Source: Pseudomonadota bacterium | Lineage (GTDB): Bacteria; Pseudomonadota; Gammaproteobacteria; JAKAQQ01 | Length of the DNA stretch: 64,000 nt | NCBI GenBank assembly: GCA_021839245.1 | Contig: JAKCBQ010000001.1 | Span: 41,032 to 105,031, forward strand | Direction: 5' to 3' | In this document: piece by piece, positions 15,644-42,300 of the stretch | Layout: each line of letters opens with the position of its first letter | Position numbering within the stretch: the first letter of the stretch is position 1 | The notes under the pieces: model-generated | Database searches by the model: none | Told to the model about the DNA's origin: nothing | What the model saw: the letters and a program-made list of their open reading frames with translations, nothing else | Made by a program: the position numbers and the translations under genes

Positions 15644-15667
15644 TTTTGACGTTCTCTGGTTTAAGCG

Positions 15668-16534
15668 GTGCTGAACTCTCCGACGCAGGAAGACACAACG
15701 GCCGCAGCCGGTCGAGTCTGGCGCAACGTCTACTACATCTCCGACGGCACGGCAATTACGGCTCAAACCGTGGGGCGAAGTTTGTTGACGCAGTTTGAGA
15801 GACGCTACCGATTTCGTGATGCGCTTATTCCTTTTGTCGATAGTGAAGAAAAAGCGCGCAAGGTTGCCGAGCGCCTCGCGGACGATCAGAGTCGTCACGA
15901 ATTGCCATCCATTGTATTCAGCACGTTCGTGAGTGAAACGCTGGACCGTATCGTTCGGGCGGCCCCTGGTGTTCATGTTGCTGTTTTTCACGAGTTTATC
16001 CCTCGATTGGAGCACGAACTCGGGATGTCCGCCGAGCACACTCGAGGGTTGGCTCATGGAGCCAGCGATTTCGCACACTACACGCGACGTATTGACGCCA
16101 TCAACTACGCGCTGCTCCACGACGACGGCATGACAACAGAGGGTTATTCCAAAAGCGAGATCATCCTCATCGGCATCTCTCGGGTGGGGAAAACGCCCAC
16201 ATCGCTCTATCTGGCACTACAGCACGGCATCTTTGTTGCCAACTATCCGCTTTCTTCTGAAGATCTTGCGGCACAAACACTTCCGTCGGCTTTGCGCCCC
16301 CATCGGCGCAAAATCTTCGGCCTCACCATACAACCCGAGCGCTTGCAAGTCATCCGTCAAACCCGGCGCCCTGATTCTCATTACGCATCCCCGCGGCAGG
16401 TACAAGATGAGGTTGACGCGGCGGAAGGTCTTATGCGCCTTTCCGGGGTCCCGTTCCTGGATACGACAAAACGGTCTATTGAAGAAATCGCTTCGACGAT
16501 TCTGCAAAGGCACTCGTCCATCACCGCCGAATGA
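15668..16534 (+). CDS. ppsR: PEP synthase regulatory protein (bifunctional kinase/pyrophosphorylase, DUF299)
   Basis: VYYISDGTAITAQT N-terminus and P-loop GISRVGKTPTSLYLA are characteristic of PpsR/YdiA. Confidence 0.8.
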   Translation: MLNSPTQEDTTAAAGRVWRNVYYISDGTAITAQTVGRSLLTQFERRYRFRDALIPFVDSEEKARKVAERLADDQSRHELPSIVFSTFVSETLDRIVRAAPGVHVAVFHEFIPRLEHELGMSAEHTRGLAHGASDFAHYTRRIDAINYALLHDDGMTTEGYSKSEIILIGISRVGKTPTSLYLALQHGIFVANYPLSSEDLAAQTLPSALRPHRRKIFGLTIQPERLQVIRQTRRPDSHYASPRQVQDEVDAAEGLMRLSGVPFLDTTKRSIEEIASTILQRHSSITAE

Positions 16535-27124: not shown

Positions 27125-27958
27125 ATGAAAAGTGATAGATTGAGTGTAAGTGAGACTTGTTCTCTGTCAGCAACTAGGCACAAAGTGAACAGGCGCAGAT
27201 GGGCTCATTTTTTTCGATGCGCGGCTCCGTTAGCCATGGCCATCACTCTAGGTCTCTCTGGTTGTGCAATCACACCCTACTCTGGGTCCCAGGCCTACGG
27301 TTGGTACTCCACATATGGAGGGGGAGGCGGAACCTACGACTTCAATGGCTTCCAGGAAACCTTCGGATGGCCAGGGGCATGGGAAGGGGGAAGCTATAAC
27401 TACCCTGGGTACTATGAATACAACTACCCGTACGTTCCTCCTTACTCCGCATATCCTTACCCTGTCTTTACCCAGTCTCCCCCGCCGCCTCCCGGAGGAG
27501 GGCCCCCGCCGCCTCCCGGAGGAGGGCCTCCGCCGCCTCCCGGAGGAGGGCCTCCGCCGCCTCCCGGAGGAGGGCCTCCGCCACCTCCCGGAGGAGGGCC
27601 TCCGCCACCTCCCGGAGGGGGGTTCCCGCCACCTCCTGGAGGGGGGTTCCCGCCACCTCCTGGAGGAGGGCCCCCGCCACCTCCTGGAGGGGGGTTCCCG
27701 CCATCTCCTGGAGGAGGGCCCCCGCCACCTCCTGGAGGGGGGTTCCCGCCACCTCCTGGAGGAGGGCCCCCGCCACCTCCTGGAGGAGGGCCCCCGCCAC
27801 CTCCTGGAGGGGGGTTCCCGCCATCTCCTGGAGGAGGGCCCCCGCCACTTGGTCCTCTTGGGGGAGGGCCATTTGGGCCGCCGCCCGGTGGCCCGCCTGG
27901 AGGAGGACCTCCGTCCCCTCCCGGCCCACCTGGTGGTGGACCACCGTTCAATCCCTAA
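27125..27958 (+). CDS. Tyr/Gly/Pro-rich lipoprotein, family 1 (member b) with (PPPPPGGG)n tail
   Basis: Lipobox LSGC. YGWYSTYGGGGGTYDFNGFQETFGWPGAWEGGSYNYPGYYEYNYPY module homologous to 23424 and 28142. It is followed by about 15 tandem PPPPPGGG units. The start codon is uncertain. Confidence 0.5.
   Translation: MKSDRLSVSETCSLSATRHKVNRRRWAHFFRCAAPLAMAITLGLSGCAITPYSGSQAYGWYSTYGGGGGTYDFNGFQETFGWPGAWEGGSYNYPGYYEYNYPYVPPYSAYPYPVFTQSPPPPPGGGPPPPPGGGPPPPPGGGPPPPPGGGPPPPPGGGPPPPPGGGFPPPPGGGFPPPPGGGPPPPPGGGFPPSPGGGPPPPPGGGFPPPPGGGPPPPPGGGPPPPPGGGFPPSPGGGPPPLGPLGGGPFGPPPGGPPGGGPPSPPGPPGGGPPFNP
27478..27846 (+). repeat. 24-nt tandem coding repeat (cctcccggaggagggcctccgccg)n encoding (PPPPPGGG)n
   Basis: Direct reading of the sequence: about 15 near-perfect units with G-to-F and P-to-S variants. 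It generates spurious long ORFs on the other five frames. Confidence 0.9.
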
Positions 27959-28141
27959 CCATCGCCGCTTCCCCAGCGCGTCCCGAGCCCTCTTCCATTA
28001 CCGAGGATGCCGCGGTCGTTTGATCCCTCATCTCTACCCTGGCGGGCGGGTCTCGTATCCCTAAGTTCGATGATCGTCAGACCAGTAAGTTCACAAGTCA
28101 TAGCTTGAGGGTTCAATTATTCATTTCTGGAGCACATCGCC

Positions 28142-28654
28142 ATGAAACATCGCAAACTATCGGCAGGCGTGCTCGCAGCCACTTGCCTCCTTCTGGTTTT
28201 GCCCCTAGCTAAAGCGGGATCTTCCGGCGCTGAGCACAGGCCCGACCATAAGCCCGGAGCCTCCCGTCCGGTATTTCGGCCGAGGCTTGTCTATCGTCTT
28301 CCCTTTCAAGATACGATGCATCTTTATCAGGGTCAGCATAGTCTCCAGATCAAACGTCGCAGTTGGCATGGATGTCAAAACCCGCGCCTCTGTGTCGAAT
28401 TGCCTCATCAGTGGTGCCTGTTTGGATGCGCAATCAAACTCGGCAGTTTTCCCCGCGTTAATCCCCAGGATTATGGTTGGTACACTGCGTACGGAGAAGG
28501 AGGAGGGCTAGTCAACAACATCTACGACATTGGTGGGTTCCAAGAAAACTTTGGCTGGCCGCCAAAGGCATGGGTGGGCGGAAATTACTACGATACCGGG
28601 TACTATGAATTCGGCTATCCGTATCTCTCTTATCCTGCCTACCCTAAACGCTAG
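28142..28654 (+). CDS. secreted Tyr/Gly-rich protein, family 1 (member c)
   Basis: Sec signal peptide (PLAKA/GSS). C-terminal YGWYTAYGEGGG...GGFQENFGWPPKAWVGGNYYDTGYYEFGYPYLSYPAYP module homologous to 27125 and 23424. Confidence 0.5.
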   Translation: MKHRKLSAGVLAATCLLLVLPLAKAGSSGAEHRPDHKPGASRPVFRPRLVYRLPFQDTMHLYQGQHSLQIKRRSWHGCQNPRLCVELPHQWCLFGCAIKLGSFPRVNPQDYGWYTAYGEGGGLVNNIYDIGGFQENFGWPPKAWVGGNYYDTGYYEFGYPYLSYPAYPKR

Positions 28655-28736
28655 TCCCTCTAGATCTCTGTAGCCGGTCTTTAATCAAACGATTGTCGTG
28701 ATCGTTTACGTGTCAGCGTCTCTTGTGCCCGTAACC

Positions 28737-28808
28737 AGATGACGTTTCCGACAACGTCTCACCAGACTAGAGATACCCATGATTCACATGTGAGAAAAAA
28801 TCGATTGC
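28737..28808. repeat. ~75-bp repeat element, copy B
   Basis: Homologous to 26606..26680. Located between the convergent genes 28142 (+) and 28839 (-). Confidence 0.6.
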
Positions 28809-28838
28809 CTCCCACTGGCATCATCGTTTGCCATATCG

Positions 28839-29432
28839 TCAAAGCTGTGACCAGCACTGATTCCAAAACTCGATCGCTGGGCTGTTATGTTCCCATCCCA
28901 GGCGGGAAATACTAGCGGCATCGAGACGCAATTGATCGCCAAACCGCAGATTCATGTCAAGCCAAATACAGGCTAGAGACCGCAAGATATGCCCGTGGGC
29001 GAAGCAAAGTATCTGCTCACAGCCGGCAGACGACCAACCTTTCAGCAGCCTCCGGCAGCGCCGACGGATGTCATGACGACTTTCACCTTCCGGCGCGCCG
29101 CAGCGAAAAATGCTCCAGTTGGGATTTTCTTGATGGATCTCGGCTGTGGTTTTGCCCTCATAGCGGCCGTAATACCATTCGTGAAGATCCGGTTCCACCC
29201 GTGGATCAAAACCGGCGATCATCGCCGTGTGACGGGCTCGCAGCAAAGGGCTTGTGTAGACACTGTCGAAACGGTATTTGCCGGCTTCGAAGTAGCGTCG
29301 TAATGCCTCGGCTTGATTTCGACCGTTGTCATTCAGGTCAAGGTCGGTGACCGAGGTATGCCTTCCCGTGGCCGCCCATTCCGTCATTCCGTGTCGGACC
29401 ATTGTGATGGAACGAATCGAAGAGTGGTTCAT
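28839..29432 (-). CDS. histidine phosphatase family protein (phosphoglycerate-mutase-like)
   Basis: N-terminal catalytic RHG motif (ITMVRHGMTEW) and a downstream conserved His (CFAHGH). Confidence 0.65.
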   Translation of the reverse strand: MNHSSIRSITMVRHGMTEWAATGRHTSVTDLDLNDNGRNQAEALRRYFEAGKYRFDSVYTSPLLRARHTAMIAGFDPRVEPDLHEWYYGRYEGKTTAEIHQENPNWSIFRCGAPEGESRHDIRRRCRRLLKGWSSAGCEQILCFAHGHILRSLACIWLDMNLRFGDQLRLDAASISRLGWEHNSPAIEFWNQCWSQL

Positions 29433-29703
29433 GGAGCACCTCGATGACGACGGCAGTCAGTGGAGAATCATTATGAGCGTGCTGGTGCTGCAGGTGTCGC
29501 CATGGATTGAGGTCCGCCTTTACAATCCAGGTCGCATGAGATATAGACGCCACGCCGCAGCAATCATTGGTGACGTTTTTGGTTTGTGTGCCCCGATCCA
29601 AATCCAGTCAGGATCATGACGGGCACTGAATTACTTCCTCGGAAGAGCATTGCCCGGAGGGAATGCGTGCCCCTTCCGTCGAAGGGTCAGTTTTAAAGCC
29701 TCA

Positions 29704-31680
29704 CTATCGGACAAGGAACGTTACCGCGAAGATCATCACAAGCAGGATCCCAATATAGGCCAGATAAACATTCATTGATCCTGACTGAATACGGCCAAGC
29801 GCATCCGCCAGTTTGTGCACCAACCGTGTGATGGGCTCGAAAACCCATGTCCCAAAAATAGGCGCCTGACTGTAGGTGAAATGCAAATGTGTGATGAAAT
29901 ATTCACGTCCCACGCTTTCACGTTTCGTGACTGTCTGGGGGCGATAAACGAAACTATAAAAGTTTCGCAGCGCATTGGAGAAAACCAGAGCCGTGGTGGC
30001 GCTTTCCCGAGGTACGGCCGCTGTCCCGTGGGCCCAAATCGGGGCTCTCCGTACACCACGACGTGAGGACCAGAAGAGCAATCCTAAGGGGATAAGAGCG
30101 AGCAACGGTCCGACGATCATCAGCAGGGTAGGGGAGATGAACGCAAATTTTGGCGTGAGCGGCACCAAGAGCCACCCCCGAACCATCGAGGCCACCGCTT
30201 GCGGGTGAGGCGGCCATCCGCTCTGGCCCAGGAATGAAAGCCACCAGGGCATCCCGACGGCATACAGGAGGATCGTAAGGCCGGGGACCAATACGGCGAC
30301 TCGGCCTGTTCGGCCTAAAGGTTTCTGTGCAGCTCCGTTTTTCCCGAGCAGTCCGACACCAAAAATCTTAGCCATGGTTGCCAAAGCGATGGCTGCCGTC
30401 AGAGCAAGCCCGGCTCCGGCTAGGGCCAAGGTGACGCGCGCCGCGCTACTGGCGAGATGGAAATCCTGGAAAATGGTCTGGAAGAGGTACCATTCGCCGA
30501 CGAATCCGGCCTGCGGCGGTAGGGCGGCGAGGCTCATGGCCCCAAAGAGCGTGGCCAGTCCGAGTGTCCAAGGGGCCAAAGCCATAAGATGGCTTTGGAC
30601 GATCCGGTAATCGCCCTTGGCTTCCTGAACACGATCGGCGGCGAGCATGAGAGTGCCTTTTGCGAGACTGTGTCCGCCGAGCTGGATGAGGGCAACCACC
30701 CACGCGAAGGTGGAAAGTATGGGCAGCCCCCCCGCCCGGAAGAGGATGGCCGCCCCCAGCGCCGTGACAGCCAAGGCCGCGTTTTCAGCCGACGAAAAGG
30801 CAAGAAGCGAGCGCCAATCTTCCTGCTGGAAGGCATAAAGGATGGTGAGTATGGCGGTCAGAGTGGCCACTGCCACAACCACGATCCCGAAGGCGGTGAG
30901 ATGAGAAAAAGCCGGCATCCATGACAGTAGGGTCCGACCTAAAGCGAAGAAGGCCATGTTGAGGACTACACCTGAAAGGATGGCGCCGCTGGCTCCGCTT
31001 CCGCTGCCGTACGCACTCGGGTACCACTCATAGAACGGCAACAGGCCCAGCTTGGCTCCAAAACCGATAAGAAAGAGGATTCCGACGCCGAAGGCAGCAG
31101 CCGTCGGAAGGGCGGTCCACGCGGCGGGCCAGGATGCGAATGTCAAACCGCGTCCCCCCAGCGTGATGACGGCCAGTAACAGAGCCACCGCCCCAACCTC
31201 CAAGAGACCCAGCATGAATAGACTGGCTTGACCAGCCTCCGTTCGAGGGGCTTGCCGGTCGGCAAGCAGCATGACGGCCGCGCCGAAACTCATCAGTTCC
31301 CAAGCGATGAGAAGGCCGATCCCATCCTGTACCGTCCCCACTCCAAGAGCACCGATGAGACAAAGAGCCACCCCGGCTAGCCAGGCGCGGGGATAACGGG
31401 TCGGGCCGCCTGCAAAAACAGCGAACAGGGCCGGAATCAAGCCCCATCCCAGAAGCCAGGCGGCGCTGGGGTCGAGATGAACGTCAAGGGCGGTGGTGCC
31501 GATCGTGTAGAGAGACCCCCAACCGGATCCCCCGGGGAGGGCAAGCGCGGCGCCCACCAGAGCCGCCAGAATCCCGAGAGTCAACAAGAGACGGACCAGG
31601 GTTTCCCAGTGGGTCAAGACGGCAAAACTCAGGGCCAACAGCCAGCAGAACAAGGTTAGAGCGAAAAAATCAAGGCTCAT
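29704..31680 (-). CDS. NuoL/HyfB-like antiporter-type membrane subunit of a group-4-hydrogenase-related complex
   Basis: ~660 aa polytopic protein with the NuoL/MrpA-like core and a C-terminal extension as in HyfB/HycC. I chose the internal Met (MSLDFF...) as the start. The ORF track begins 33 codons earlier, overlapping the upstream gene. Confidence 0.6.
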   Translation of the reverse strand: MSLDFFALTLFCWLLALSFAVLTHWETLVRLLLTLGILAALVGAALALPGGSGWGSLYTIGTTALDVHLDPSAAWLLGWGLIPALFAVFAGGPTRYPRAWLAGVALCLIGALGVGTVQDGIGLLIAWELMSFGAAVMLLADRQAPRTEAGQASLFMLGLLEVGAVALLLAVITLGGRGLTFASWPAAWTALPTAAAFGVGILFLIGFGAKLGLLPFYEWYPSAYGSGSGASGAILSGVVLNMAFFALGRTLLSWMPAFSHLTAFGIVVVAVATLTAILTILYAFQQEDWRSLLAFSSAENAALAVTALGAAILFRAGGLPILSTFAWVVALIQLGGHSLAKGTLMLAADRVQEAKGDYRIVQSHLMALAPWTLGLATLFGAMSLAALPPQAGFVGEWYLFQTIFQDFHLASSAARVTLALAGAGLALTAAIALATMAKIFGVGLLGKNGAAQKPLGRTGRVAVLVPGLTILLYAVGMPWWLSFLGQSGWPPHPQAVASMVRGWLLVPLTPKFAFISPTLLMIVGPLLALIPLGLLFWSSRRGVRRAPIWAHGTAAVPRESATTALVFSNALRNFYSFVYRPQTVTKRESVGREYFITHLHFTYSQAPIFGTWVFEPITRLVHKLADALGRIQSGSMNVYLAYIGILLVMIFAVTFLVR

Positions 31681-32458
31681 AACGTCCCCCGTGGACTTTC
31701 TGTGGGACCCGCTCGAGAAGGAGGAGAAGGGCGTGGATGAAGGCTGCCGGATTCGGTGGGCAGCCAGGCAGCCAGACATCGACCGGTACGATGCCTTCCA
31801 GGCCGTGACCGGCCGCGTAACCTTGATCCATCGGTGCGCCGGATACGGCGCAGGTTCCTGCCGCCATCACCATGCGGGGTTCAGGCATGGCCTCCCAGGT
31901 GCGGATCAGGGGGAGCCGCATGGCCGGTGTCACCGGTCCGGTCACAAGCAGCAGGTCGGCGAAACGAGGCGAAGGAGTAAAGAAAATGCCCAGACGGTGC
32001 AGGTTGTAGAAAGGATTGCTCAAAGCCTGGAGCTCTGATTCGCAGCCGTTGCAAGATCCGGCGTCGACGTGACGGATATGCAGGCTCCCTTTGAGGCTGG
32101 ATGCGATGCGGCGGCTGAGCGCCCGCTCTTCGTTCGCTGCAGCCGACTGGGTCAGGACCAAATCCTGGCGGTCACGGACAGCGAAAGCCCACTGGTCCGA
32201 GGTTGTAAGCGCGCCTTCGGGGCACGCTTCTACGCAACGTTGGCAGACGATGCAACGCCCATAATCGATGGCGATGCTTCCATCCGCGGTGATGGCTCCT
32301 GTCGGGCAGGATGCCACACAAGCCGCGCAGCCCGGTGGGCAGTGCCCGGGATCGAAAACGGGCATTCCCCGATGACCCTCTTGTCCGTCGGGACCATGGC
32401 GCGGCCAATCGGTGGCGGCGCATCCTGCCTTCATTCCCAACCAGACCCAGTTTGGCAT
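31670..32458 (-). CDS. fusion of 2x[4Fe-4S] ferredoxin domain with NuoB/HycG-like small subunit
   Basis: Two CxxCxxCxxxCP motifs (CPPGCAACVASCP; CIVCQRCVEACP) are followed by the small-subunit cluster ligands SCNGCESE, GTCAVSG and PGCPP. Confidence 0.7.
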   Translation of the reverse strand: MPNWVWLGMKAGCAATDWPRHGPDGQEGHRGMPVFDPGHCPPGCAACVASCPTGAITADGSIAIDYGRCIVCQRCVEACPEGALTTSDQWAFAVRDRQDLVLTQSAAANEERALSRRIASSLKGSLHIRHVDAGSCNGCESELQALSNPFYNLHRLGIFFTPSPRFADLLLVTGPVTPAMRLPLIRTWEAMPEPRMVMAAGTCAVSGAPMDQGYAAGHGLEGIVPVDVWLPGCPPNPAAFIHALLLLLERVPQKVHGGRYEP

Positions 32459-32466
32459 AGGACCTC

Positions 32467-34056
32467 CTAACGATCGCAACCGGCCACCGTGAGGCCGAAG
32501 CTCGCCTCGTTGATGGCAAAATCCATCATGTTCGACCCGTGTACGGTAAAAGGGAAAACTCGCCAGTTGGAGAACGATGGGGATTTAATCTTGACTCTGA
32601 ACAACCGGCCATCCCGGATATGCACGGCGTAATAAAGAGAACCTCGGGGGCTTTCGGTCCAGCCGAGCCCTTCTCCATGGTCCGCCGGCGCTAGGGGAGC
32701 GGCGCATACGGGGCCTGGTTTCAGATTTTTGGCGGCCTGAACAATCAGATCGAGAGCGCCCCTGAGGGATTCCATCCTGACCTGCGTCCGGGCTTGAGCG
32801 TCGCCTTGCTCGTGCAGTGGAACCATAAAATGTAAAAGCTCATAAGCCGCGTAGGGGTGGTCACGGCGCATATCGCGATCCAAGCCAGAAGCCCGGGCGA
32901 CAGGCCCGGTGGCTCCTTGGTCGAAGGCTGTCTGCCGCGGCAGGATGCCGGTGCCGATGAGGCGATCCTGGTGGCTGGCCGTACGATTGAGGCGCTCGAG
33001 GTAAGCGATTCCCTCATCGGCGATCGTCCGAATGACCTCGCCGATACCTTCTCCCGCGAGGTCCCGCCGCAAGCCGCCCACGGTCAAGCAGTTGCGCAGA
33101 AAGCGGCTGCCGGTCAGTCGGGCGTTCACCTGCTTCACCCGTTCTTCCAGAAGAGTCCCGAAAGCTTCGCCCACCTTCAGGGTGGTGGTCTTACAAAGAT
33201 GCCCGAAATAGTGGAAATGGTTGTAGAGCCTTTCCAGTTCCGCCAGGATGACCCGTAGCATCGCGGCCCGAGGGGGCACCTCCAACCCGAGTGCGGCTTC
33301 AACCGCTTGGCAGTAGGCGAGGGCATGGCAAACACTACCAACCCCTGAGATTCGCTCGGCCAGCGGGACCCCTTGCGTGGGCAAGAGATCATGGAAACGC
33401 CGCTCGAGCCCCCGATGCTTGTAAAAGAGGCGCATCTGGTAGTGCAGGATGCCCTCTCCGATGTAAGAGTAGTGGTGTTCTCCCGATTCTAGAACGTCGC
33501 CGCGAATCGGCCCCCAAATGAGATCCTGTACCTGATCGGCGCGTACCTCGGGCATAGTGGGAGGGCCCGATTCACCTGCAAGCCGGCTTTCGGCTTCTCT
33601 CTCAGGTCCCAGCGGAGGCGGCTGAACACTCATGCCTTCGTGGACGATCAGAGGCCAAGGCTCGGGGTGTTCCAGGAAACGCACCCCCGCAAGGTCCATC
33701 ATCTCTCGCTCGTACCACCCCAAGAGTGGGACTTCCCGAGCCAAAGAAGGCAGTTCTCCTTCGCCACGAACTTTTAGGAGAAGGAAGGGGCGTTTGCCTC
33801 CCTGAGCGATCAGGTATCGGACTTCCACCGTAGGGCCTTCCCATACGGCATAGGCCATCTGGAATCGCTTGCCCTGCCGCACCAGATCCTCGGCCGCGGG
33901 ACGGAGCTCAGAGGCCGTAAGAATGCGCGACTCACATTCGTTCACGGCAACCCCCGATGCGCCGCTGCAGCAAAGAACCGCCAGAGAGCGCTCGGCCACC
34001 AGAAGCCTAGCACCAAGACGGCCGCCAAGGTCAGCCCTAGCGGCAAGGTATTCCAA
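32467..34056 (-). CDS. fused NuoC-NuoD-like (HycE-like) large subunit; canonical NiFe cysteine ligands apparently absent
   Basis: N-terminal 30-kDa (NuoC) domain (WYEREMMDLAGVRF). C-terminal NuoD / [NiFe]-large-subunit fold. The N-terminal metal-binding motif reads ERISGVGSVCH instead of R-x-C-G-x-C-xxx-H. The C-terminus ends GLTVAGCDR instead of DPCxxCxxR. The 115-nt overlap with the upstream gene means the start is uncertain. Confidence 0.6.
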   Translation of the reverse strand: MEYLAARADLGGRLGARLLVAERSLAVLCCSGASGVAVNECESRILTASELRPAAEDLVRQGKRFQMAYAVWEGPTVEVRYLIAQGGKRPFLLLKVRGEGELPSLAREVPLLGWYEREMMDLAGVRFLEHPEPWPLIVHEGMSVQPPPLGPEREAESRLAGESGPPTMPEVRADQVQDLIWGPIRGDVLESGEHHYSYIGEGILHYQMRLFYKHRGLERRFHDLLPTQGVPLAERISGVGSVCHALAYCQAVEAALGLEVPPRAAMLRVILAELERLYNHFHYFGHLCKTTTLKVGEAFGTLLEERVKQVNARLTGSRFLRNCLTVGGLRRDLAGEGIGEVIRTIADEGIAYLERLNRTASHQDRLIGTGILPRQTAFDQGATGPVARASGLDRDMRRDHPYAAYELLHFMVPLHEQGDAQARTQVRMESLRGALDLIVQAAKNLKPGPVCAAPLAPADHGEGLGWTESPRGSLYYAVHIRDGRLFRVKIKSPSFSNWRVFPFTVHGSNMMDFAINEASFGLTVAGCDR

Positions 34057-35399
34057 AGGCTCAGTTTGAGCGTTGGCTCCGCCCCGGATTCCGGTTCATC
34101 GCCAAAAGCCATGGCACGGAAATGATTCAGAAAGGCGATGAAGATCAAAATGAGGAGGAGGCCCATCACCCAAACAGCCCAGGCATTGGGGCCTTGAAGG
34201 CCGCCCCGCATGATCGTAATTTCGGAAAGAAAGAGGCCGAAGGGAGGAGCGCCGGTAATCGCCACCGCGCCCAGAAGCCATAAAAATCCACTGATGGGAT
34301 AGAAACTGAGAATACTCCGCACGGCACTCATCTCCTTGCTGCCGTAGGCACGCATCATGTTGCCTGAGCCGAAAAACATATGAGATTTGGCAAGGGAATG
34401 GTTGAGCATGTGATACATGGCACCTGCCACTCCCAGCACGCCCCCGAAGCCGAACCCGAGAGCGACGATTCCCATGTGTTCCACGCTGGAGTAAGCCATG
34501 AGCCTCTTGGCCCCCGTCTGACGGATGATGAAAAAAGCCGCCAAAAAGAGCGACAGGGCACCGAGGACCACCAGGGCCGTTCTCCCTAACAGCCCTACGC
34601 CGCCTCCCTGCACGACACCCAGAAACCGTACGATGCCCAACATGGCGGTGTTGAGAAGAGCCGCTGAAAGCATGGCGGAAACGGGTGCGGGTCCTTCGCT
34701 GTGAGCGTCGGGCAACCAAGTGTGCATGGGGGCCAGCCCAACCTTGGTGCCAAAACCTACAAGAACCAGGAGAAAGGCAAGCAGCAAAAGGGCTTTGGGC
34801 ATGAAGGGGGCGCTCGCGGTGAGATTGGCCCAAGTCATGGCGTAAACGGGTCCCAAGTGAAGAGTTCCCCCCCAGTAGAAAAGCACGATTCCAAGGAGCG
34901 CCAGTGACAACCCCGCCGAAACGATGACGATGTATTTCCAAGCCGCCTCAACGCTCTCCGCTTCACGTTCGAAACCCACCAAAAAGGCACTCACAATCGT
35001 CGTCAGATCAATGACAATCCAGTACAGTCCCGGATTGTTCATGAGCGGGGCTACCAGCATTGTGAGAGCGAAACCCGCCATCAGCGCGTAAAAAAGAGGC
35101 AGACGTGATTCTTCCTTTCGCAGCAGGCGCATATAGCCCACGGCGTAGAGGCTTGCCAAAAGGTAAACGATGGCAACGCAGAGCTCGACCCAGTTTCCTA
35201 AGGGGGCAAGAATCAGGTAGCCACCCCCCAAGACCAAAGATCGATCCGGAGCGATGAGGAGTAGTGTGACCGCTGCCCCAAACACCACGATCGCCGCCAT
35301 CAGGTTCAGATATTCAGCTGCTCGCGGACGGTTCAGCAGCAGGATGGCAATAATGGCCGCTGTCGGCACACCCCAAAGGATGGTGATGAGTGAGCTCAT
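33942..35399 (-). CDS. NuoM/NuoN (HyfD/HyfF)-like antiporter-type membrane subunit
   Basis: 485 aa, about 14 TM helices, with conserved complex-I antiporter-subunit residues (GTKVGLAPMHTWLPDAH). Confidence 0.7.
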   Translation of the reverse strand: MSSLITILWGVPTAAIIAILLLNRPRAAEYLNLMAAIVVFGAAVTLLLIAPDRSLVLGGGYLILAPLGNWVELCVAIVYLLASLYAVGYMRLLRKEESRLPLFYALMAGFALTMLVAPLMNNPGLYWIVIDLTTIVSAFLVGFEREAESVEAAWKYIVIVSAGLSLALLGIVLFYWGGTLHLGPVYAMTWANLTASAPFMPKALLLLAFLLVLVGFGTKVGLAPMHTWLPDAHSEGPAPVSAMLSAALLNTAMLGIVRFLGVVQGGGVGLLGRTALVVLGALSLFLAAFFIIRQTGAKRLMAYSSVEHMGIVALGFGFGGVLGVAGAMYHMLNHSLAKSHMFFGSGNMMRAYGSKEMSAVRSILSFYPISGFLWLLGAVAITGAPPFGLFLSEITIMRGGLQGPNAWAVWVMGLLLILIFIAFLNHFRAMAFGDEPESGAEPTLKLSLWNTLPLGLTLAAVLVLGFWWPSALWRFFAAAAHRGLP

Positions 35400-35400
35400 C

Positions 35401-36081
35401 TCAACCTACCAGCTTCTGCAGCGCACGGCTGCTTGTGGCGCCGGCGTGCACCTTGAGGTAGCGCACGAGGATTCCAAACGTCATGACAATGACGAGAAGA
35501 TCGAAGAGAATGACCAACTCCAGAAGCAAAGGCATTCCCGGGACCAGGATCTGGGATCCCAAGAAGATGCCGTTCTCGATGACGAGGAGTCCCAGGATGT
35601 GGCTGATGGCTTCTGAGCGTAGGACCATCAGTAGGAAACCGATCAGCACAAGGCTGAACATACAGGTGAGGGCCAGCACGGCAATGCCTGAAGGCAGGTC
35701 CAGTCGCCTTCCGAGTGCCTCGGCTACGCCGTAAGCAAAGATCACCAGGAATGCTCCGATCATCATGCTCGACGCGGGTTTCAGGAGCGGCGTGAATTCT
35801 CGCTCGATCCCCAACCGATCCACCAGCCGCAACAGCAGGTAGGGGAGTAAGCTGCCGCGGAAGAGAGCTGTTAGGATCGCGATGAAATAGAGCTCCTCGT
35901 AATGGCCGTAGTAGCCCACAGAGGCCGAGAGAAAGGCAATGACCCAGGATTCAGCGGCAAACGAATAAACATGATTTTTAAGCCAGTGAGAACCTAACAT
36001 CACGAAGGACAGCACCAACGCCACGATGGCCAGAAGGCTGAACACTGATGTCGGCAGGAGGCCGAGATGGAAAATCAGCAT
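35401..36081 (-). CDS. HyfE-like small membrane subunit
   Basis: ~226 aa with 6-7 TM helices, placed between the NuoH-like and NuoM-like genes as in hyf/ehr loci. I chose the internal Met start (MLIFHLGLL...). Confidence 0.5.
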   Translation of the reverse strand: MLIFHLGLLPTSVFSLLAIVALVLSFVMLGSHWLKNHVYSFAAESWVIAFLSASVGYYGHYEELYFIAILTALFRGSLLPYLLLRLVDRLGIEREFTPLLKPASSMMIGAFLVIFAYGVAEALGRRLDLPSGIAVLALTCMFSLVLIGFLLMVLRSEAISHILGLLVIENGIFLGSQILVPGMPLLLELVILFDLLVIVMTFGILVRYLKVHAGATSSRALQKLVG

Positions 36082-36097
36082 GAAGCTTCCCCTGGGT

Positions 36098-37060
36098 TCA
36101 TATCTGAGAGGCGACAATCGCAAGCACGGCGAACAGGAAAGACAGCGCCAGTGGTTCTTGATAACGGTAAAAGCGCAGCCGGGACTGCATGGTGTCCACA
36201 GCGGCCATCGAAAGTCCAAGGGCTCCGTACTTCAAAAAAATGATGAGGACCGCGAGCCCCACGGAGGCAAGGCTTCCTGTGATCGACAAGCCCCAGGGGA
36301 AGAGAAAGACGTTCAGAAAGATGGTGTAAAGGATGAACTGCTTCATCCAGGACGACCATTTCAGAAGCCCCAGGAGAGGGCCCGAATATTCAAGGACACG
36401 CGCTTCGTCGATCATGTAAATTTCGTAATGAATCGACGAATGGATTGGCAACCGGTCTGTTTCGACCGTCAGCAGTATCAGGAAGGCAAAGACCAGGAAG
36501 AGATGGGAAGGACCCCAGTAGGCCACAGGATCCTGGGCCAAAAGATGATTCGCCACAAACGGAAGCATGGCGTGATCCAGAAAGGTAATCCCGACGAGCA
36601 CCAGGATCAGTGTCGGCTCGGCGAGGATGGTGAGCATCACAGATCGACTGGACCCAAGGCCGCCAAACGGTTGCCCGGAATCCAAGCCGGCCAGGAGGAT
36701 CATGAAACTGCCGAGAGTGAGGATCAATCCGCCTCCCAGGATGTCGCCCATATCCGAGAGAGGTAGAGGGTAGTTGGTCAAGACAGGGATCAGGAGCGGC
36801 ACTGTAAGCATGGCTGTAAAGGCCACGACAGGTGCTGCCCAGAAGATCCAGGTGGCTGTCTCAGGAAGAACTAATTCTTTGTGGAAAAGCTTCCAAAGAT
36901 CGCGGTAAGGTTGGAAGATAGAGGGACCGCGCCCACGCTGTATGCGCTCTTCAGCCTTGACGATAAAACCGTGGAGCAGCGGAGCGAGAAGAAGAACGGT
37001 CAGAACTTGACCGATCTGCAAAACGATGGGGCTCAAAATCATACTTAGGCTTCCGATCAC
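36098..37060 (-). CDS. NuoH/HycD-like membrane subunit
   Basis: 320 aa polytopic protein with NuoH-family architecture. It is the first gene of the six-gene minus-strand operon, preceded by a 228-bp AT-rich intergenic region. Confidence 0.7.
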   Translation of the reverse strand: MIGSLSMILSPIVLQIGQVLTVLLLAPLLHGFIVKAEERIQRGRGPSIFQPYRDLWKLFHKELVLPETATWIFWAAPVVAFTAMLTVPLLIPVLTNYPLPLSDMGDILGGGLILTLGSFMILLAGLDSGQPFGGLGSSRSVMLTILAEPTLILVLVGITFLDHAMLPFVANHLLAQDPVAYWGPSHLFLVFAFLILLTVETDRLPIHSSIHYEIYMIDEARVLEYSGPLLGLLKWSSWMKQFILYTIFLNVFLFPWGLSITGSLASVGLAVLIIFLKYGALGLSMAAVDTMQSRLRFYRYQEPLALSFLFAVLAIVASQI

Positions 37061-37288
37061 ACAGACACTAAACTCCCCTGTTGCTTATGTGCAAACAGAG
37101 GGGGTAGGGGTCATTAGCCGTGATCGGCACTTAATATTGGCGAACCCCATCGCCTATGTGAATAGTCTACTACATCGTTAGGAGTTTGGGGGTTCTATAA
37201 CTTTACATAATATACATTCTGGGTTATTCGGCCTAGGGTGGCTAGAGCCTTTCTGACGTGTTTCCCGCTTCCGTCTCTGCGACCACCA

Positions 37289-38233
37289 TCAACTCTTCGG
37301 GCATCCCGATGTGGTGCAGCGCTGGTACAGGCGATGCATGGTCTTTTTTACCTGTCGAAGGTTACCGATGATCACATAGGCGTGGAAGTGGTAAGGCCCA
37401 GGCCTTACGGGACGGTAGCGATAAACGCAATTCCATTTGACGACACGTGGAAAGTCGACACTCCCGTAACCCGCATGAGGCCAGTCGGCTTGGGGCAGGC
37501 CCGGACAGTAGATGCCCATGGCGTAACGATGATCTGGCGTACTCCGGATCACGGGGTAAGGTTGCTCTCCTCTGCGACCACGGGCAGGAATCAAGCGCAT
37601 GGACCAGGGATGAAAGTAAAAAGCTTGAGAGAACCTTGGCGGCATGTAGCCGGTCAACGCCTCAAAGGTAGCACTTCGGTAACGAGCCGGTACGTCAAAG
37701 GTGAGCGAGTCACGAAGGACGTTGTGGAAATCGCGCAGGCCTATCGTCAGATGTTTGTGCAGCACGACCTTGGAAAGCACCGCCCGATTGACGGCACGGT
37801 GCAGATAAGTGTGGCTCCCACAGACCCGGGGGTAGGACGATTGCCCAGGCTGCAGCCAGAAGGCCATCTGCGTGACCGTCCACAGTTGGTTGCCGCGAAC
37901 TTTTATGGCACGCAGGACACTGCTGCTTCGATTCCCAGCACCGTTCGCGCGAGAACCAGCCTCCGTCGGGTTGTAGCAGACACCGAAGTTATTAAAGAAC
38001 ACGTCGCTTTGCAGCTCTCGGCCGTGATCCCGGCTGTTGATAAAAGACTGCCCCTTCCAGGTCAACGCGCTGATGGCCCCCGCGAAACGGCTGCGTGTTT
38101 GGAGGGTAAGGGTAGAGCCGAGAATCTGTACCGAGATCGTCCGATTTCCGTCGACACCCCGAGCCATTGCGGGGTAAAGGAACTCGGTCGCAGACAAGAC
38201 GCAAAAAAGCGGAACCAAGTATATTGCACGCAT
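37289..38233 (-). CDS. hypothetical secreted protein
   Basis: Start set at the signal peptide MRAIYLVPLFCVLSATEFLYPAMA. The ORF track starts 54 codons earlier, overlapping the uppS-like gene. No recognisable domain. Confidence 0.45.
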   Translation of the reverse strand: MRAIYLVPLFCVLSATEFLYPAMARGVDGNRTISVQILGSTLTLQTRSRFAGAISALTWKGQSFINSRDHGRELQSDVFFNNFGVCYNPTEAGSRANGAGNRSSSVLRAIKVRGNQLWTVTQMAFWLQPGQSSYPRVCGSHTYLHRAVNRAVLSKVVLHKHLTIGLRDFHNVLRDSLTFDVPARYRSATFEALTGYMPPRFSQAFYFHPWSMRLIPARGRRGEQPYPVIRSTPDHRYAMGIYCPGLPQADWPHAGYGSVDFPRVVKWNCVYRYRPVRPGPYHFHAYVIIGNLRQVKKTMHRLYQRCTTSGCPKS

Positions 38234-38306
38234 GGCACCATGTTTACCCGATCCCATGCTACACAGGCGTTGTACGGTCTGCCGCAGGCTCATATTGCCA
38301 CCTCTT

Positions 38307-39233
38307 CTAGCGCCCAAAACGACGCTCTCGCTGTTGATAGCTGCGTAAAGCGCGTAGGAAATCGATCCTTCGGAAATCGGGCCACAGCGCATCACAGAAA
38401 TAGAACTCGCTGTACGCGGACTGCCACAGAAGAAAACCGGAAAGGCGCTGCTCCCCGCTCGTCCGGATGATGAAATCTGGGTCGGGCGTGCCGGCTGTGT
38501 ATAGGTAGCGCTCCAAGTCTTCCGGAGTAAGATTTTTTGCCAGCTCCTCTAGGGTCAGCTGCTTGGCCTGGGCGTCCCTCAGTAGCGCTTTACAGGCATC
38601 TGTAATTTCTTCCCGCCCACCGTAGGCCAAGGCGATAGTCAAGAGCATGCCCTTGCGGTTGGCCGTGGATATCTCGATTTCTTCGGAAGCTTCAATGACG
38701 TGTTGTGGAAGACGATGACGCTGCCCAATGACCCTCACCCGTACCTCCTCGGATGACAAGCGCGGATTCTTGAGCATCTCCGCGCTTTCCTTGACGAAAA
38801 GATCAAGCAGGGTCTGCACTTCTTCTGTGGATCGTGTGAAATTCTCTGTGCTGAAGACATAGAGAGTTACGTGTGAAATGCGGAAATCCAGGCACCACTG
38901 AAGAAACTCTCGAAGTTTCTTGACACCGTATTCGTGCCCACGGATGGCTCGTATTCCGAAGTTTCTAGCAAAACGTCGATTCCCGTCCAGAATGAGTCCT
39001 ATGTGGCACGGCGGCTGCCCCGCACGGACCTGCTTATCGAGTCTCTTTTCATAGTACCAGTAAATCGGCCTTATGAAATAACCAAAGAGACACAAAAAAT
39101 AGGTTCGTAGTGAACTCCGAGCAATTGGAAGATGCGGGAGAGAGTCTTGTTCGGAGACGTCGCTCGCATCTGATTTTGAGCCGTTTTCTACATTGTTCTT
39201 GGTGCGGGCATCTTGATGGATGGATTGTCTCAT
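38307..39233 (-). CDS. cis-prenyltransferase (UppS-family isoprenyl diphosphate synthase) with N-terminal hydrophobic extension
   Basis: UppS-family motifs HIGLILDGNRRFA, TIALAYGGREEI and IIRTSGEQRLSGFLLWQSAY. Unusually, about 75 aa precede the DGNRR motif and include a hydrophobic stretch (TYFLCLFGYFIRPIYWYY). Confidence 0.75.
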   Translation of the reverse strand: MRQSIHQDARTKNNVENGSKSDASDVSEQDSLPHLPIARSSLRTYFLCLFGYFIRPIYWYYEKRLDKQVRAGQPPCHIGLILDGNRRFARNFGIRAIRGHEYGVKKLREFLQWCLDFRISHVTLYVFSTENFTRSTEEVQTLLDLFVKESAEMLKNPRLSSEEVRVRVIGQRHRLPQHVIEASEEIEISTANRKGMLLTIALAYGGREEITDACKALLRDAQAKQLTLEELAKNLTPEDLERYLYTAGTPDPDFIIRTSGEQRLSGFLLWQSAYSEFYFCDALWPDFRRIDFLRALRSYQQRERRFGR

Positions 39234-39330
39234 CTTGGTCTCGGATGTCCTCTCCTACGTGACAAGAACCCAACGGTGCGGTGCCATTCTTTGTTAGCAC
39301 CGCACCATGGAGTGCCTTTTGTCCCACCTG

Positions 39331-42300
39331 TCAATGAAGAACCATAGGCGATACATGAGGAATCTGTAAGTGATAGTTCCGATACGGTTCGCGATGGTAG
39401 CGAGGAATGGGATGTTCACGAAGCATGCGCAATGCGAGATGGACGGCTTCGACAAGCTGGGGGTCGATTCCTTTGCGCACAAGCGCGGGATTGTTCCAGA
39501 TTTTGACCGTGGGCGCAATCCCATGATCCTCGACGGGGAAATGCCCGTTCAGGCCCTCAATTGCTTCACGAGGTGCGGTGACTCGCCCTCCGTCCATGAG
39601 CGGTGGGTACCCCCAAATTCCAACCAGCCCACCCCATGTTCTCGTGCCCACCAAGGGCCCAAGGTGCGCCATTTTGAAAAACCACGGTAGCGCATCGCCT
39701 CCGGATCCCGAGTAGCGGTTGATGATCATGACCTTGGGGCCCTGCATGACCTGTGACGGTTCAACGTACGTTCGTCCGTAGCGGTTGACATGCAGAGCCA
39801 TCGGCTTGCGCTGCAGATACTGAATGACGTAGTCGGCGAGATCGCCCCCCGTGTTGAAACGTTCGTCGATGATCACTCCTTCCTTGTTGACCTGCGAGAA
39901 AAAATACCGATTGAAATAACGCAGTCCTGCACTATAAGTGTTGGGAAGATATACGTAACCCAACCGCCCATGGCTCATGCGATTCACCACACGAATATTG
40001 TGATCGACCCACGCCGCGAGATTGAGTGGGGCTTCATTGCTGATCGCGTGCACCACCAGATTGCGTGCTCCAGACCCGTTGGCGTTTTTGGCAACCGTCA
40101 GGAGAATATCTTTGTCGGCTAAACCTTCAAACGCCGCGTATATGCTTTTGCTCGCTCGAATCTGATGTCCGTTCACCGCGAGCACGTAATCGCCTCTGTG
40201 GATGTTCAAGCCGGGTTGAGCCAGTGGGGCGTAGAGAGACGGGTTCCACTCCCCTCCCCTCAAAATTCTGGTGATTTGATAACGTCCATGCTTGATTCGG
40301 TAACGAGCACCGAGAAGCCCGACGCCGACGTGGAGTGTATGCGGCTCCATCCCTCCACGGACAAACATATGTCCCACAGCGAGATAACTGAGCATCTCTC
40401 TGAAGAGAATGTTGAGTCCGTGGCGGCTCCCGACCCCAGGGAGATAGCGTTCAAAAATCTTGGCGACGCGGTCGATTGGCGTTCCGTCGAAGATAGGACT
40501 GTAGAAGTATGTATGCTCCATACGCCAAACGTCTTGATACATTTCCGACCAAGCCAATTGAGGTACCACTCGAACAATCATGTTCTCTGTGGGGATTGGG
40601 CGCCGAGTGAATTTGCCGATCGTCGAGTCGACATACCATTTGTGACCGACGGCGACAAGCATTCTCTTTCCGTCTCTTGCAATATGGAAAACGCGTGCCT
40701 GCGTAACCAGCGCGGTCTCTTTGCGTTTGGTGAGATTGTAACGAAGCACGGAAAAAGTGGGGAGACTGCTCAGCGGAGGGATCGGGGCGGCGCGAAGCAG
40801 GATCAGGCGGTCTCCCGGCAAGGATTCCAGTCCAACGTAATTAGCCGCTGGTACCGGGAGCGCCACCAGCCGGTCCCTTAGGTGGTCCAGGTCGATCCGT
40901 GGCTCTACGATGTTTTGTGGTTTCTTTGTGTCAACTGCGTTTTTGCTTCCCAGCCCAGGAAATTGCACGCGTGCTGGTATGGGCGATGGGGTTCTTCGCC
41001 CCAGAGCCAGAGCGTATACGCTGCGGCGGATTCTGTGGTCGAGACCGGTCATGTCCAGCGTTGTGGCAGAGAGACCCAAGTCAGTGCTTTCGGTGAAATA
41101 CAAATAACGCCCGTGAGGTGAGAAAACAGGATCACGACAATCGCTTGAACCGTGGGTGACCATGTGGTTTGTGTGTCGCCTCACAGAAAACAAAACAATC
41201 GCGTGGCGAAAGTTCGGCTCAAGCCTTGTGTAGACAATCCACCGGCCGTTAGGTGACCAACGAGCATCGAAATGCTGTGCGGTCGAATCGTAGATGTCGG
41301 TGGCAATGAGGCGTGGGTGCGAATTGCGTTTTTTGAGATTGATTTCGTAGAGATGCAAACGCACGTCCGCGTACAAGAGTCCGTTGCCGCTTGGCGACCA
41401 GCGGAGATGCCTGTAAAAATCGTATCGCGAACCCAGCGAGAAGGCCCGAACCGGACCAATGCCGTCGGCTTTACGTACATACAGGGCGTAAGCACCAGAT
41501 TGATCTGAGAAATACGCGATTCTCGACCCATGTGGTGACCAGGCCGGATCGCGAACCATCTCTCCCGCATCATGAGTCAGTGTCACCATTCCCTTGTGCC
41601 GGACGGACAGTTCGAGCAGTTTGCCGTAGGCCGTGAAGGCCACCCAATCACCGCGTGGGTCGATGGCTGAATTCTGGAGATAAGGTTGTGCCTTGACAAA
41701 GCGTGGACGGAGATCGGGAATGTTGCCCTCGAGCCGGATGGGAATTGTCCGCACACGTTGCGTGTGTAGATTGTAGAGCTCAATCCGGCCAAACCTGTCG
41801 AGGACGATAGCACCGGGTCCGCTTGCTGCGGAAAGCATGTCGAAATGGTGACGCGAAACCGGTAGTCTTTCCCGGAGGCGATGATTACGTACGTTGTAGG
41901 AGTACAGGGTAAATTGCCCGGCGGCATTGGAAAGGAAAAAGATATGGTTTCCTATCCAAAGGGGATCACGGTCTTCGGCAGGTCCGTGGGGTATACGCAC
42001 AAGAATGCGTGAAGTCCCCAGTTGTGCAATGCGGATCGTGGTCTTTTGACCGCCTTCGTAATGCTGCCAGAAGCGCTCCCACTGAAGTTCGGGAACGTAT
42101 GCGATTTCGTGATTGTGAGGAGAAAATGATCCTGCCTGGCCGGTGGGCAAAGGGAGCGGACGTGCGAATCCGCCTCGCCGAGAAACCAGAAAGAGGCGGG
42201 GAATGTAGTGTGGCCCATAACGATCGGAGCGAAACAAAACATCCCGACTGTTCGTTGTCCAACCTACGGCAATGTTGGGCGACGGATAATAGGTCAACCG

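Follow-up and report, generated by a model that had tools for sequence, protein, structure and literature searches.

An Ehr-type operon related to complex I and group 4 hydrogenases, without NiFe ligand cysteines, in a gammaproteobacterial contig

When the genes of a hydrogenase-like membrane complex lack the cysteines that should hold its NiFe centre, the question arises of what the complex is and what reaction it may carry out. We studied such a locus in a gammaproteobacterium (Pseudomonadota; GenBank assembly GCA_021839245.1), within a stretch of 64,000 nucleotides of contig JAKCBQ010000001.1 (contig positions 41,032 to 105,031), which is called the window hereafter and to whose own numbering all positions refer. 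Between positions 29704 and 37060, six co-directional and tightly packed open reading frames (ORFs) lie on the minus strand in the order H-E-F-G-I-B (Table 1). Their starts were chosen from ribosome-binding sites and homologue lengths. A preliminary description of the window, made from its letters, had taken these genes for an operon of the complex-I/group-4-hydrogenase type, and this was borne out by the ORFs and by Pfam and NCBIfam matches, which were far above chance for all six genes. The gaps or overlaps of 8-16 nt given there were roughly right; the computed junctions from H to B are +16, +1, -4, +8 and -11 nt, indicating that the six genes form a translationally coupled operon. We found that the NiFe ligands of the large subunit are lost, that the Fe-S chain is invariant, that maturation and electron-input genes are missing nearby, and that the large subunit falls in a clade without the ligand cysteines. 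For these reasons the complex is very probably a functional energy-converting hydrogenase-related (Ehr) complex rather than a NiFe hydrogenase, which supports the interpretation first offered for it.

The loss of the ligands was seen in the large subunit, the product of gene G, which carries the Pfam domains PF00329 (Complex1_30kDa), PF00374 (NiFeSe_Hases) and PF00346 (Complex1_49kDa). We aligned this protein by MAFFT with HycE, HyfG, NuoCD and seven relatives, the hyc, hyf and nuo products of E. coli K-12 being the reference sequences throughout. ERISGVGSVCH aligned to DRVCGICGFAH of HycE, and GLTVAGCDR aligned to DPCYSCTDR, exactly where the two former NiFe motifs had been placed. The preliminary description had proposed an alignment with HycE, EchE, MbhL and NuoD as a check and had counted at least three of the four ligands as substituted; in the present alignment, none of the four ligand cysteines is kept, and Ser, Gly, Thr and Gly stand in their places, so that the count was an understatement. 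Two leftover cysteines, in VCH and in GCDR, lie one residue away from ligand positions, and neither is invariant in the family: the first position is Ala in most relatives, while C490 in GCDR is 89% conserved, with Ala or Val in the remaining members. Like NuoD, the protein terminates at ...GCDR, whereas HycE and HyfG run 32 residues further; in HycE, this tail is the part that is cleaved off by HycI. The quinone-site residues of complex I are also gone, since in the alignment with E. coli NuoCD the position of the NuoD Tyr is occupied by Gly and that of the His of the beta1-beta2 loop by Leu. The NuoC-NuoD fusion, which had been pointed out as a notable detail, is the normal architecture of HycE and HyfG.

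We then considered what surrounds the former active site. In the region of the first motif, the family shows no variation at E197, R198, S200, G201 and H207, and in that of the second motif G489 is invariant and T486 is 96% conserved. Near the former site, the family-specific invariant polar residues comprise R148, E153, H168, K176, S200, H207, C212, Y241, the TTTLK stretch at 253-257 and E480, together with T486; among these, E153 corresponds to the hydrogenase-type Glu of the beta1-beta2 loop. Cys212, five residues past the motif His207, is kept in 120 of 121 family members, and its counterpart is Thr in HycE and HyfG and Val in NuoCD. The best sequence match of the protein in the Protein Data Bank (PDB) was HycE (7z0s_E, 4e-48), and Nqo4 and MbhL were matched as well. 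An AlphaFold2 model built from a 54-sequence alignment reached a predicted local distance difference test (pLDDT) score of 85.8 and a predicted template modelling (pTM) score of 0.91, low confidence being confined to the beta1-beta2 loop and the final four residues. The top solved fold for this model was again HycE (7Z0S_E, template modelling score 0.90), with NuoCD of complex I in second place; no fold in the PDB search came closer than HycE or complex I.

Relatives of this large subunit number in the thousands. All of the 120 best homologues (56-99% identity) carry ERVSGVGSxxH and FGLTxAG[C/A/V]DR; their hosts include Acidithiobacillus ferrivorans, A. ferruginosus, A. caldus and Acidiferrobacter, as well as metagenome-assembled genomes (MAGs) of Xanthobacteraceae, Hyphomicrobiales, Stellaceae and Actinomycetota. 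In the databases the homologues are labelled 'nickel-dependent hydrogenase large subunit', 'formate hydrogenlyase subunit 5' or 'NADH-quinone oxidoreductase subunit C/D'. In an exhaustive HMMER search over 1.84 billion cluster representatives, 6516 matched the large subunit. Among the top representatives of full length (121), all four cysteines occur in about 26 and are missing from about 90, the latter mostly showing a Ser...Ser/Thr...Gly pattern. In a rough neighbour-joining tree the gene G protein sits in a clade of exclusively Cys-less group-4-like large subunits, and many separate Cys-less clades occur among the representatives. The Ehr class, as judged from these sequences, has the look of a heterogeneous, polyphyletic collection. 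When the six genes were compared with those of the closest genome copy (locus L001, MAG TL1-5.bin26, 90-97% amino-acid identity), dN/dS was 0.04-0.13 for every gene, with 0.04 for gene H. The low dN/dS and the family-specific invariant residues together indicate that the complex is a maintained enzyme and no relic.

The Fe-S chain is found in the product of gene I. Alignment identified a HycF/HyfH/NuoI-like 2x[4Fe-4S] ferredoxin domain at about residues 1-115 and a HycG/HyfI/NuoB-like small subunit at about residues 125-262. The small-subunit module has the hydrogenase-type cysteines SCNGC, GTCA and PGCPP, as previously read from the sequence, and its proximal-cluster cysteines C136, C139, C203 and C233 are invariant or near-invariant in 121 sequences. 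Both cluster motifs of the ferredoxin domain had been read as CxxCxxCxxxCP; this holds for the second (C-x2-C-x2-C-x3-CP), but the first is one residue longer (C-x3-C-x2-C-x3-CP). Eleven of the 12 Fe-S ligand cysteines of the protein are kept in 121/121 sequences and the remaining one in 120/121. From these motifs, gene I is predicted to carry a chain of three [4Fe-4S] clusters, two in the ferredoxin domain and one N2-like cluster with hydrogenase-type CxxC ligation. The fusion of ferredoxin and small subunit is present in 120/120 best homologues of the protein (261-281 aa); being fixed across the family, it is not the unusual detail that it had been taken for.

The four membrane subunits retain the residues expected of a pumping module. 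Gene H matched PF00146 (2e-32) and shares the motifs QxYRD, GLDxG..SR, EP and EYSG with HyfC, HycD and NuoH. The acidic loop PFDxxEAExELxxG between transmembrane helices (TM) 5 and 6 of NuoH, HycD and HyfC is replaced in the gene H family by PIHSSxHYEIYMIDEAR, at about residues 215-235 of gene H, with two conserved His. In complex I, the TM5-6 loop of NuoH borders the quinone cavity, and by this analogy the PIHSSxH loop is a candidate part of the active site. Gene E has no Pfam match; it matched NCBIfam PRK11492 (hydrogenase 4 membrane subunit, 2e-13), still has the Glu residues of the membrane part (ENG, ELV) when aligned with E. coli HyfE, and has homologues of 226 aa in every related locus. 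Gene F matched PF00361 (6e-51) and HyfF models (8e-105); of the charged residues of NuoL/M/N and HyfB/F, it keeps Asp in TM5, Lys in TM7, His/Lys in TM11 and Glu in TM12. Gene B, with a full-length match to NCBIfam PRK06521 (HyfB, 1e-76), keeps the same set, but with Glu in TM5.

We searched for the genes that a hydrogenase, a formate hydrogenlyase or a respiratory complex I would need. The tblastn searches with E. coli HypA-F, HycI, HycH, HycB, HyfA, HyfJ, HyfR and FocB gave no match in the 64 kb, nor did those with NuoA, NuoE, NuoF, NuoG, NuoJ and NuoK. Pfam scans of about 30 neighbour ORFs detected no family of hydrogenase-maturation, endopeptidase, formate dehydrogenase (FDH) or NuoE/F/G type. 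Both results agree with the earlier remark that no hyp, endopeptidase, FDH or NuoE/F/G genes are nearby. The operon, with its order and its fusion, occurs also in Acidithiobacillus, Acidiferrobacter, Frateuria, Rhodopila and alphaproteobacterial and actinomycete MAGs. The order H-E-F-G-I-B was found in 12/12 related loci with a whole operon, and gene B was always terminal; the final position of the NuoL-like gene, also put forward as a peculiarity, is thus fixed across the family. The flanks of these loci are unrelated to each other, which together with the fixed six-gene order indicates a self-contained module. No family-wide partner gene was found in the flanks of 11 related loci by all-vs-all BLAST and Pfam contexts; recurrence was limited to crcB with DUF190 in Acidithiobacillus-like loci and, loosely, a histidine phosphatase. 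The flanks contained no formate or other dehydrogenase, nitrogenase or ferredoxin-linked enzyme. A gene with a loose match to the iron-sulfur-biogenesis-type family PF01521 lies about 2.7 kb downstream in one locus only (L016).

We compared the complex with the known systems that it resembles. Ehr small subunits retain the proximal [4Fe-4S] cluster cysteines. Other features of the class were taken from papers that cite Marreiros et al. 2013, and the window complex agrees with Ehr on every class-level feature compared: it shares the group-4/complex-I-like subunit set, a large subunit without the NiFe CxxC motifs and a small subunit with the Fe-S cysteines. The four Cys ligands, the C-terminal extension and the hyp genes that would mark a group 4 [NiFe]-hydrogenase are absent from the window, as are the NuoD quinone ligands, the full membrane core and NuoE/F/G of a respiratory complex I. 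E. coli Hyf and Hyc resemble the window complex in having counterparts of HyfB, C, E, F, G, H and I, the NuoC-NuoD fusion and the hydrogenase-type CxxC ligation; unlike them, the window has no NiFe ligands, no cleaved C-terminal tail and no HyfA/HycB, HyfD, HyfJ/HycH, HycI, HyfR or FocB. Moreover, the equivalents of HyfH and HyfI are fused and the HyfB-like gene has moved to the end of the operon. With complex I/NDH-1 it shares NuoB, C, D, H and I, antiporter-like modules and conserved transmembrane Lys/Glu, and with the ferredoxin-dependent NDH-1 also a NuoI-type domain as the outermost cluster carrier and the absence of an NADH module. In contrast to complex I, it has only two antiporter-like subunits, lacks NuoA, J, K, E, F and G as well as the NuoD Tyr/His, and has CxxC where NuoB has a tandem CC. 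MBS is a 13-subunit complex of archaeal hosts with an Mrp-type module. The Pyrococcus furiosus MBX/MBS (PDB 6U8Y) is also derived from group 4 and has also lost H2 production; its MbsL is a detectable homologue of the gene G protein (1e-22), with much lower similarity than HycE or Nqo4.

The closest described relatives are found in acidophiles. The six-gene cluster AFE2149-54 of A. ferrooxidans was first named a group-4 hydrogenase (PMC2621215). For its hyfBCEFGI products, HydDB returned 'non-hydrogenase catalytic subunit sequences' and the complex went undetected in H2 growth (Kucera et al. 2020, PMC7735108); a literature search by locus tag for expression data gave the genome paper only. This cluster (AFE2149-54, DN052_15040-15065) is tied to the window family by its published description, whereas the loci of A. 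caldus and A. ferrivorans share with the window the H-E-F-G-I-B order, the ferredoxin-NuoB fusion and the motifs ERVSGVGSxxH and FGLTxAGCDR, with a large-subunit identity of 63-68% to these and other Acidithiobacillus matches. In Sulfobacillus, six syntenic genes (nuoH-, nuoL-, HyfE- and HyfB-like among them) around a Cys-less large subunit were named Ehr (Justice et al. 2014, PMC4378227). The Ehr cluster of Geobacter sulfurreducens (GSU0739-45, Coppi 2005), compared by description, was reported with seven genes as against six in the window; Ehr complexes are further described from Nitrospira and AOA (ammonia-oxidising archaea). HydDB explicitly leaves out Ehr as non-H2-metabolising.

Another Cys-less complex, Hyq of Azorhizobium caulinodans (hyqRBCEFGI, AZC_4355-4360), has six structural subunits homologous to NuoL/H/J/M/CD/B (PMC3357923). 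Taken from its description, Hyq would share with the window the Cys-less NuoC-NuoD fusion and differ in operon architecture. HyqG resembles gene G in being a NuoC-NuoD fusion without both CxxC motifs, in an aerobic proteobacterial host (PMC3357923). In Hyq, however, the B gene comes first and the operon contains the sigma-54 regulator HyqR (PMC2650096, PMC3357923), while no HyfR-like gene was found in the window. In HyqI the CxxC occupies residues 55-58 and a fused ferredoxin domain is absent (PMC3357923), whereas gene I has about 135 additional N-terminal residues and two additional clusters. The conserved Cys pattern of HyqG (258/491/497) also differs from that of the gene G protein, and a search for this pattern, with Cys 13 and 7 residues from the C-terminus, found none among the representative matches.

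Given an Ehr-type complex, we asked which reaction would best account for its parts. Our best explanation of the whole, to which we assign a probability of roughly 0.45, is an ion-translocating oxidoreductase: a ferredoxin-like carrier would feed electrons into a wire of three [4Fe-4S] clusters leading to a non-NiFe site, where quinone is the leading candidate. The exposed NuoI-like domain would receive the electrons from ferredoxin or flavodoxin, as soluble carriers of low potential, as is the case for photosynthetic NDH-1, Ech and Mbh. By this analogy we give a ferredoxin-type donor an even chance, because the outermost module is a bare NuoI-like domain with no NuoEFG, HycB/HyfA or dehydrogenase partner. 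From there electrons would reach the proximal cluster and then the remodelled pocket at the interface of the large subunit, the small subunit and the NuoH-like subunit. The acceptor at this pocket would be a membrane quinone; this assignment is tentative and stands below even odds, quinone being the most plausible candidate because the hosts are aerobic and use quinones and because the NuoB/NuoD/NuoH interface is retained. The redox reaction would be coupled to the translocation of H+ (or Na+) through the HyfE/HyfF/HyfB-like module, and could run backwards under a high proton-motive force.

Several points weigh against this explanation. Donor and acceptor have been demonstrated for no Ehr complex, and papers of 2023-2025 (including PMC12342949) call the function unknown; our literature search found no solved or characterised Ehr-like ferredoxin:quinone complex. 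The canonical NuoD quinone Tyr/His are missing and the TM5-6 loop of the NuoH-like subunit is remodelled, so that quinone reduction would need another binding mode. By a rough estimate, reversal from quinol (ubiquinol) to ferredoxin looks energetically marginal with about three pumping channels. The Ehr subunits of G. sulfurreducens are more abundant on formate (PMC7894505), and the genetics of the Cys-less Hyq of Azorhizobium were read as H2 turnover (PMC3357923). Finally, the absence of Hyp and partner genes holds for 64 kb of the genome.

The alternative that survives best, though we regard it as unlikely, is that the same machinery works mainly in reverse, as an analogue of Rnf or Fix: the proton-motive force of an acidophile would drive quinol electrons uphill to ferredoxin or flavodoxin, and the product, at the same low odds, would be a low-potential reductant for nitrogenase, 2-oxoacid:ferredoxin oxidoreductases and similar enzymes. 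The architecture suits both directions, and acidophilic chemolithoautotrophs often carry members of the family (Acidithiobacillus, Acidiferrobacter and MAGs from acid mine drainage, AMD). Reduction of ferredoxin driven by the proton-motive force was proposed for the A. ferrooxidans cluster by Valdes et al. (PMC2621215). The hyq genes of Azorhizobium are NifA-regulated and their deletion slows diazotrophic growth (PMC2650096), which suits the supply of reductant as well as the recycling of H2. However, non-diazotrophic hosts with the Calvin-Benson-Bassham cycle, such as A. caldus, have the operon too (PMC3826726), a ferredoxin-consuming pathway was linked to the operon in none of the examined loci, and the step from ubiquinol to ferredoxin requires, as a rough estimate, about 1 eV per 2 e-, which is beyond what about 3 H+ give.

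That the complex is the membrane module of a formate-oxidising supercomplex, similar to formate hydrogenlyase or an FDH-Ehr assembly and fed by an FDH encoded elsewhere, seems improbable to us. The subunits are closest to E. coli Hyf and Hyc, such a coupling has been proposed for A. ferrooxidans (PMC2621215), A. caldus (PMC3826726) and the Ehr of Margulisbacteria (PMC6349859), and formate raises the abundance of the Ehr subunits of G. sulfurreducens (PMC7894505). Yet no FDH, no HycB/HyfA-type connecting ferredoxin and no FocB or HyfR/FhlA are present in the 64-kb window, the related loci have unrelated flanks without FDH, and the lack of a NiFe site makes the hydrogen-lyase half-reaction implausible.

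The claim of an 'endo-hydrogenase' for Hyq leads to a third possibility, an H2-metabolising enzyme with a non-canonical active site, which we consider very improbable. Mutants deleted for hyq are altered in their diazotrophic growth and in H2 evolution, even though both CxxC motifs are missing from HyqG (PMC2650096, PMC3357923), and gene G keeps E153 and H207, with the invariant Cys212 and the mostly conserved Cys490 beside the old site. An indirect effect, by way of the electrons supplied to nitrogenase, can account for these Hyq phenotypes, and the Hyq authors themselves deem a NiFe site 'uncertain, if not unlikely' (PMC3357923); besides, Hyq has another gene order and an unfused small subunit. 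In the window complex, the four ligand positions read S/G/T/G, the C-terminal extension is missing, and no protease or hyp genes lie in the 64 kb. Moreover, the A. ferrooxidans homologue was rejected by HydDB and undetected in H2 growth (PMC7735108), and H2 does not induce the Ehr of Nitrospira (PMC12342949). In the same way, we see very little chance that the pocket (invariant Ser200, His207, Cys212, Glu153 and Arg148, with the mostly conserved Cys490) is a new catalytic site, for nickel-free H2 turnover or for another small substrate or metal. If it were, a widespread family would be an undescribed type of energy-converting enzyme and not a ferredoxin:quinone oxidoreductase.

A decaying hydrogenase relic, or a purely secondary cation/proton antiporter without redox chemistry, is hardly credible: the catalytic ligands are lost, the NuoH-like gene of A. 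ferrivorans (L015) is split and the ferredoxin domain of the second A. caldus paralogue is degenerate, but the dN/dS of 0.04-0.13 in six of six genes and the conservation of the 12 Fe-S cysteines over 121 sequences strongly disfavour it, as do the many family-specific invariant polar residues round the former active site, the intact and tightly coupled reading frames, and the conservation of the operon over classes and phyla, and the idea of a pseudogene was rejected.

The complex, with 67% identity to its nearest named relatives, is a further member of a class already flagged in the literature as non-hydrogenase or Ehr (PMC7735108, PMC4378227); it is not a discovery, and the locus alone does not change existing knowledge of Ehr. 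In acidophiles, nitrifiers and soil bacteria, few bioenergetic gene clusters without an assigned function are as common as those for Ehr-type complexes. Annotations regularly mistake them for a 'nickel-dependent hydrogenase' or 'formate hydrogenlyase', so that H2 metabolism is overpredicted from genomes. The analysis sharpens one large and uniform subfamily, with six fixed genes, the ferredoxin-NuoB fusion, three Fe-S clusters, pumping residues and a remodelled, conserved pocket. Its cultured hosts are Acidithiobacillus spp., Frateuria sp. Soil773 and Rhodopila globiformis, in which the role of Ehr can be tested.

Table 1. Genes of the operon, former NiFe motifs and presumed promoter region, in window positions
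Feature	Position	Strand	Remark
Gene H, NuoH/HyfC/HycD-like membrane subunit	36098-37042	-	ATG start, 314 aa; longest ORF from GTG at 37060
Gene E, HyfE-like small membrane subunit	35401-36081	-	226 aa
Gene F, HyfF/NuoM/N-like antiporter-like subunit	33942-35399	-	485 aa
Gene G, fused NuoC-NuoD/HycE-like large subunit	32467-33945	-	GTG start at 33945, 492 aa
Gene I, ferredoxin + NuoB/HycG fusion	31670-32458	-	Fer4 families and PF01058 (Oxidored_q6)
Gene B, HyfB/NuoL-like antiporter-like subunit, last gene of the operon	29704-31680	-	658 aa
Former L1 NiFe motif ERISGVGSVCH, gene G residues 197-207	33325-33357	-	MAFFT alignment
Former L2 NiFe motif GLTVAGCDR, gene G residues 484-492, protein end	32470-32496	-	MAFFT alignment
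Upstream AT-rich intergenic stretch, presumed promoter region	37061-37288	-	weak sigma-70-like match

The transcription signals of the operon were scanned as well. A weak sigma-70-like sequence, TTCACA-18-AATATT, lies upstream at 37162-37133; promoter-like matches in the scan were not in excess of those in shuffled sequence, so that this match is only a candidate. Downstream of the operon, the terminator scan found a hairpin that lacks a T-run. The distal half of the operon (30001-34000) has a GC content of 0.61-0.62 as against 0.53-0.55 in 28001-30000 and 36001-40000, and its AT skew is strongly positive. One copy in A. caldus was reported on a genomic island (PMC3826726). The GC contrast, the unrelated flanks elsewhere and this report are hints that the six-gene module is perhaps horizontally mobile.

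Among the annotated neighbours in the window are genes for type II secretion, ClpB, proteases, lipoyl synthase, a histidine phosphatase, UppS, a tricorn-like protease, MlaC, MMPL and SufB. A second complex-I-like cluster considered at 2-13 kb was rejected, since the long ORFs there code for pentose-phosphate enzymes, glucoamylase enzymes and type II secretion. The histidine phosphatase gene (PF00300; 28839-29432, minus strand) follows the operon after 270 nt, in the same orientation. In L001 the same position is taken by a homologue (14493-15086, 87% identity) and in L006 by a weak one (15177-15785, 33%), and remoter copies lie elsewhere in L005 and L007; the gene is possibly a mere local neighbour. 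Directly upstream of the operon, the ORF at 37289-38395 (minus strand, 334-368 aa) belongs to no Pfam family and overlaps a similarly long ORF of the opposite strand (37238-38470). It was also called in a 99%-identical contig of the European Nucleotide Archive (L008) and is not beside the operon in L001.

In Acidithiobacillus, crcB (fluoride channel) and a DUF190 gene directly follow the HyfB-like gene, and at least the DUF190 gene also does so in two AMD MAGs (all seen in L002, L003, L009, L011 and L015, at about 14260-14980); neither gene was found in the window or in other family members. In A. caldus (L009, 16075-21494+, GCA_001931655.1; also L010 and L011), the first H-E-F-G-I-B cluster is followed in tandem, some 2 kb downstream, by a paralogous second one, ahead of which lie DUF211 and an ORF of 174 aa. 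The large subunit of this second cluster is Cys-less too, with the motifs AERFAGASAFAH ... LSIAENDR, and in its small subunit most cysteines of both ferredoxin cluster motifs are gone. The window comes from a different, uncultured proteobacterium and differs from the Acidithiobacillus loci in having neither the downstream crcB and DUF190 nor the tandem second cluster of A. caldus. In A. ferrivorans (L015, 6861-7852, GCA_000750615.1), the NuoH-like gene was called as overlapping pieces of 99 and 232 aa in an otherwise intact operon, which suggests a frameshift, through sequencing error or as a pseudogene.

Two further ORFs of the window, at 27125-27958 and 28142-28654 on the plus strand, have no Pfam match. 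In the first, a signal-peptide-like N-terminus precedes a 24-nt repeat that is present in about 15 copies (GGGPPPPP units; tandem repeat at 27479-27848, Tandem Repeats Finder score 523, 90% matches). The second (170 aa) lacks the repeat array and shares with the first the Tyr/Gly-rich segment GWY..YGGGG..GFQExFGWP...YYE..YPY, and the two are a pair of probably secreted paralogues.

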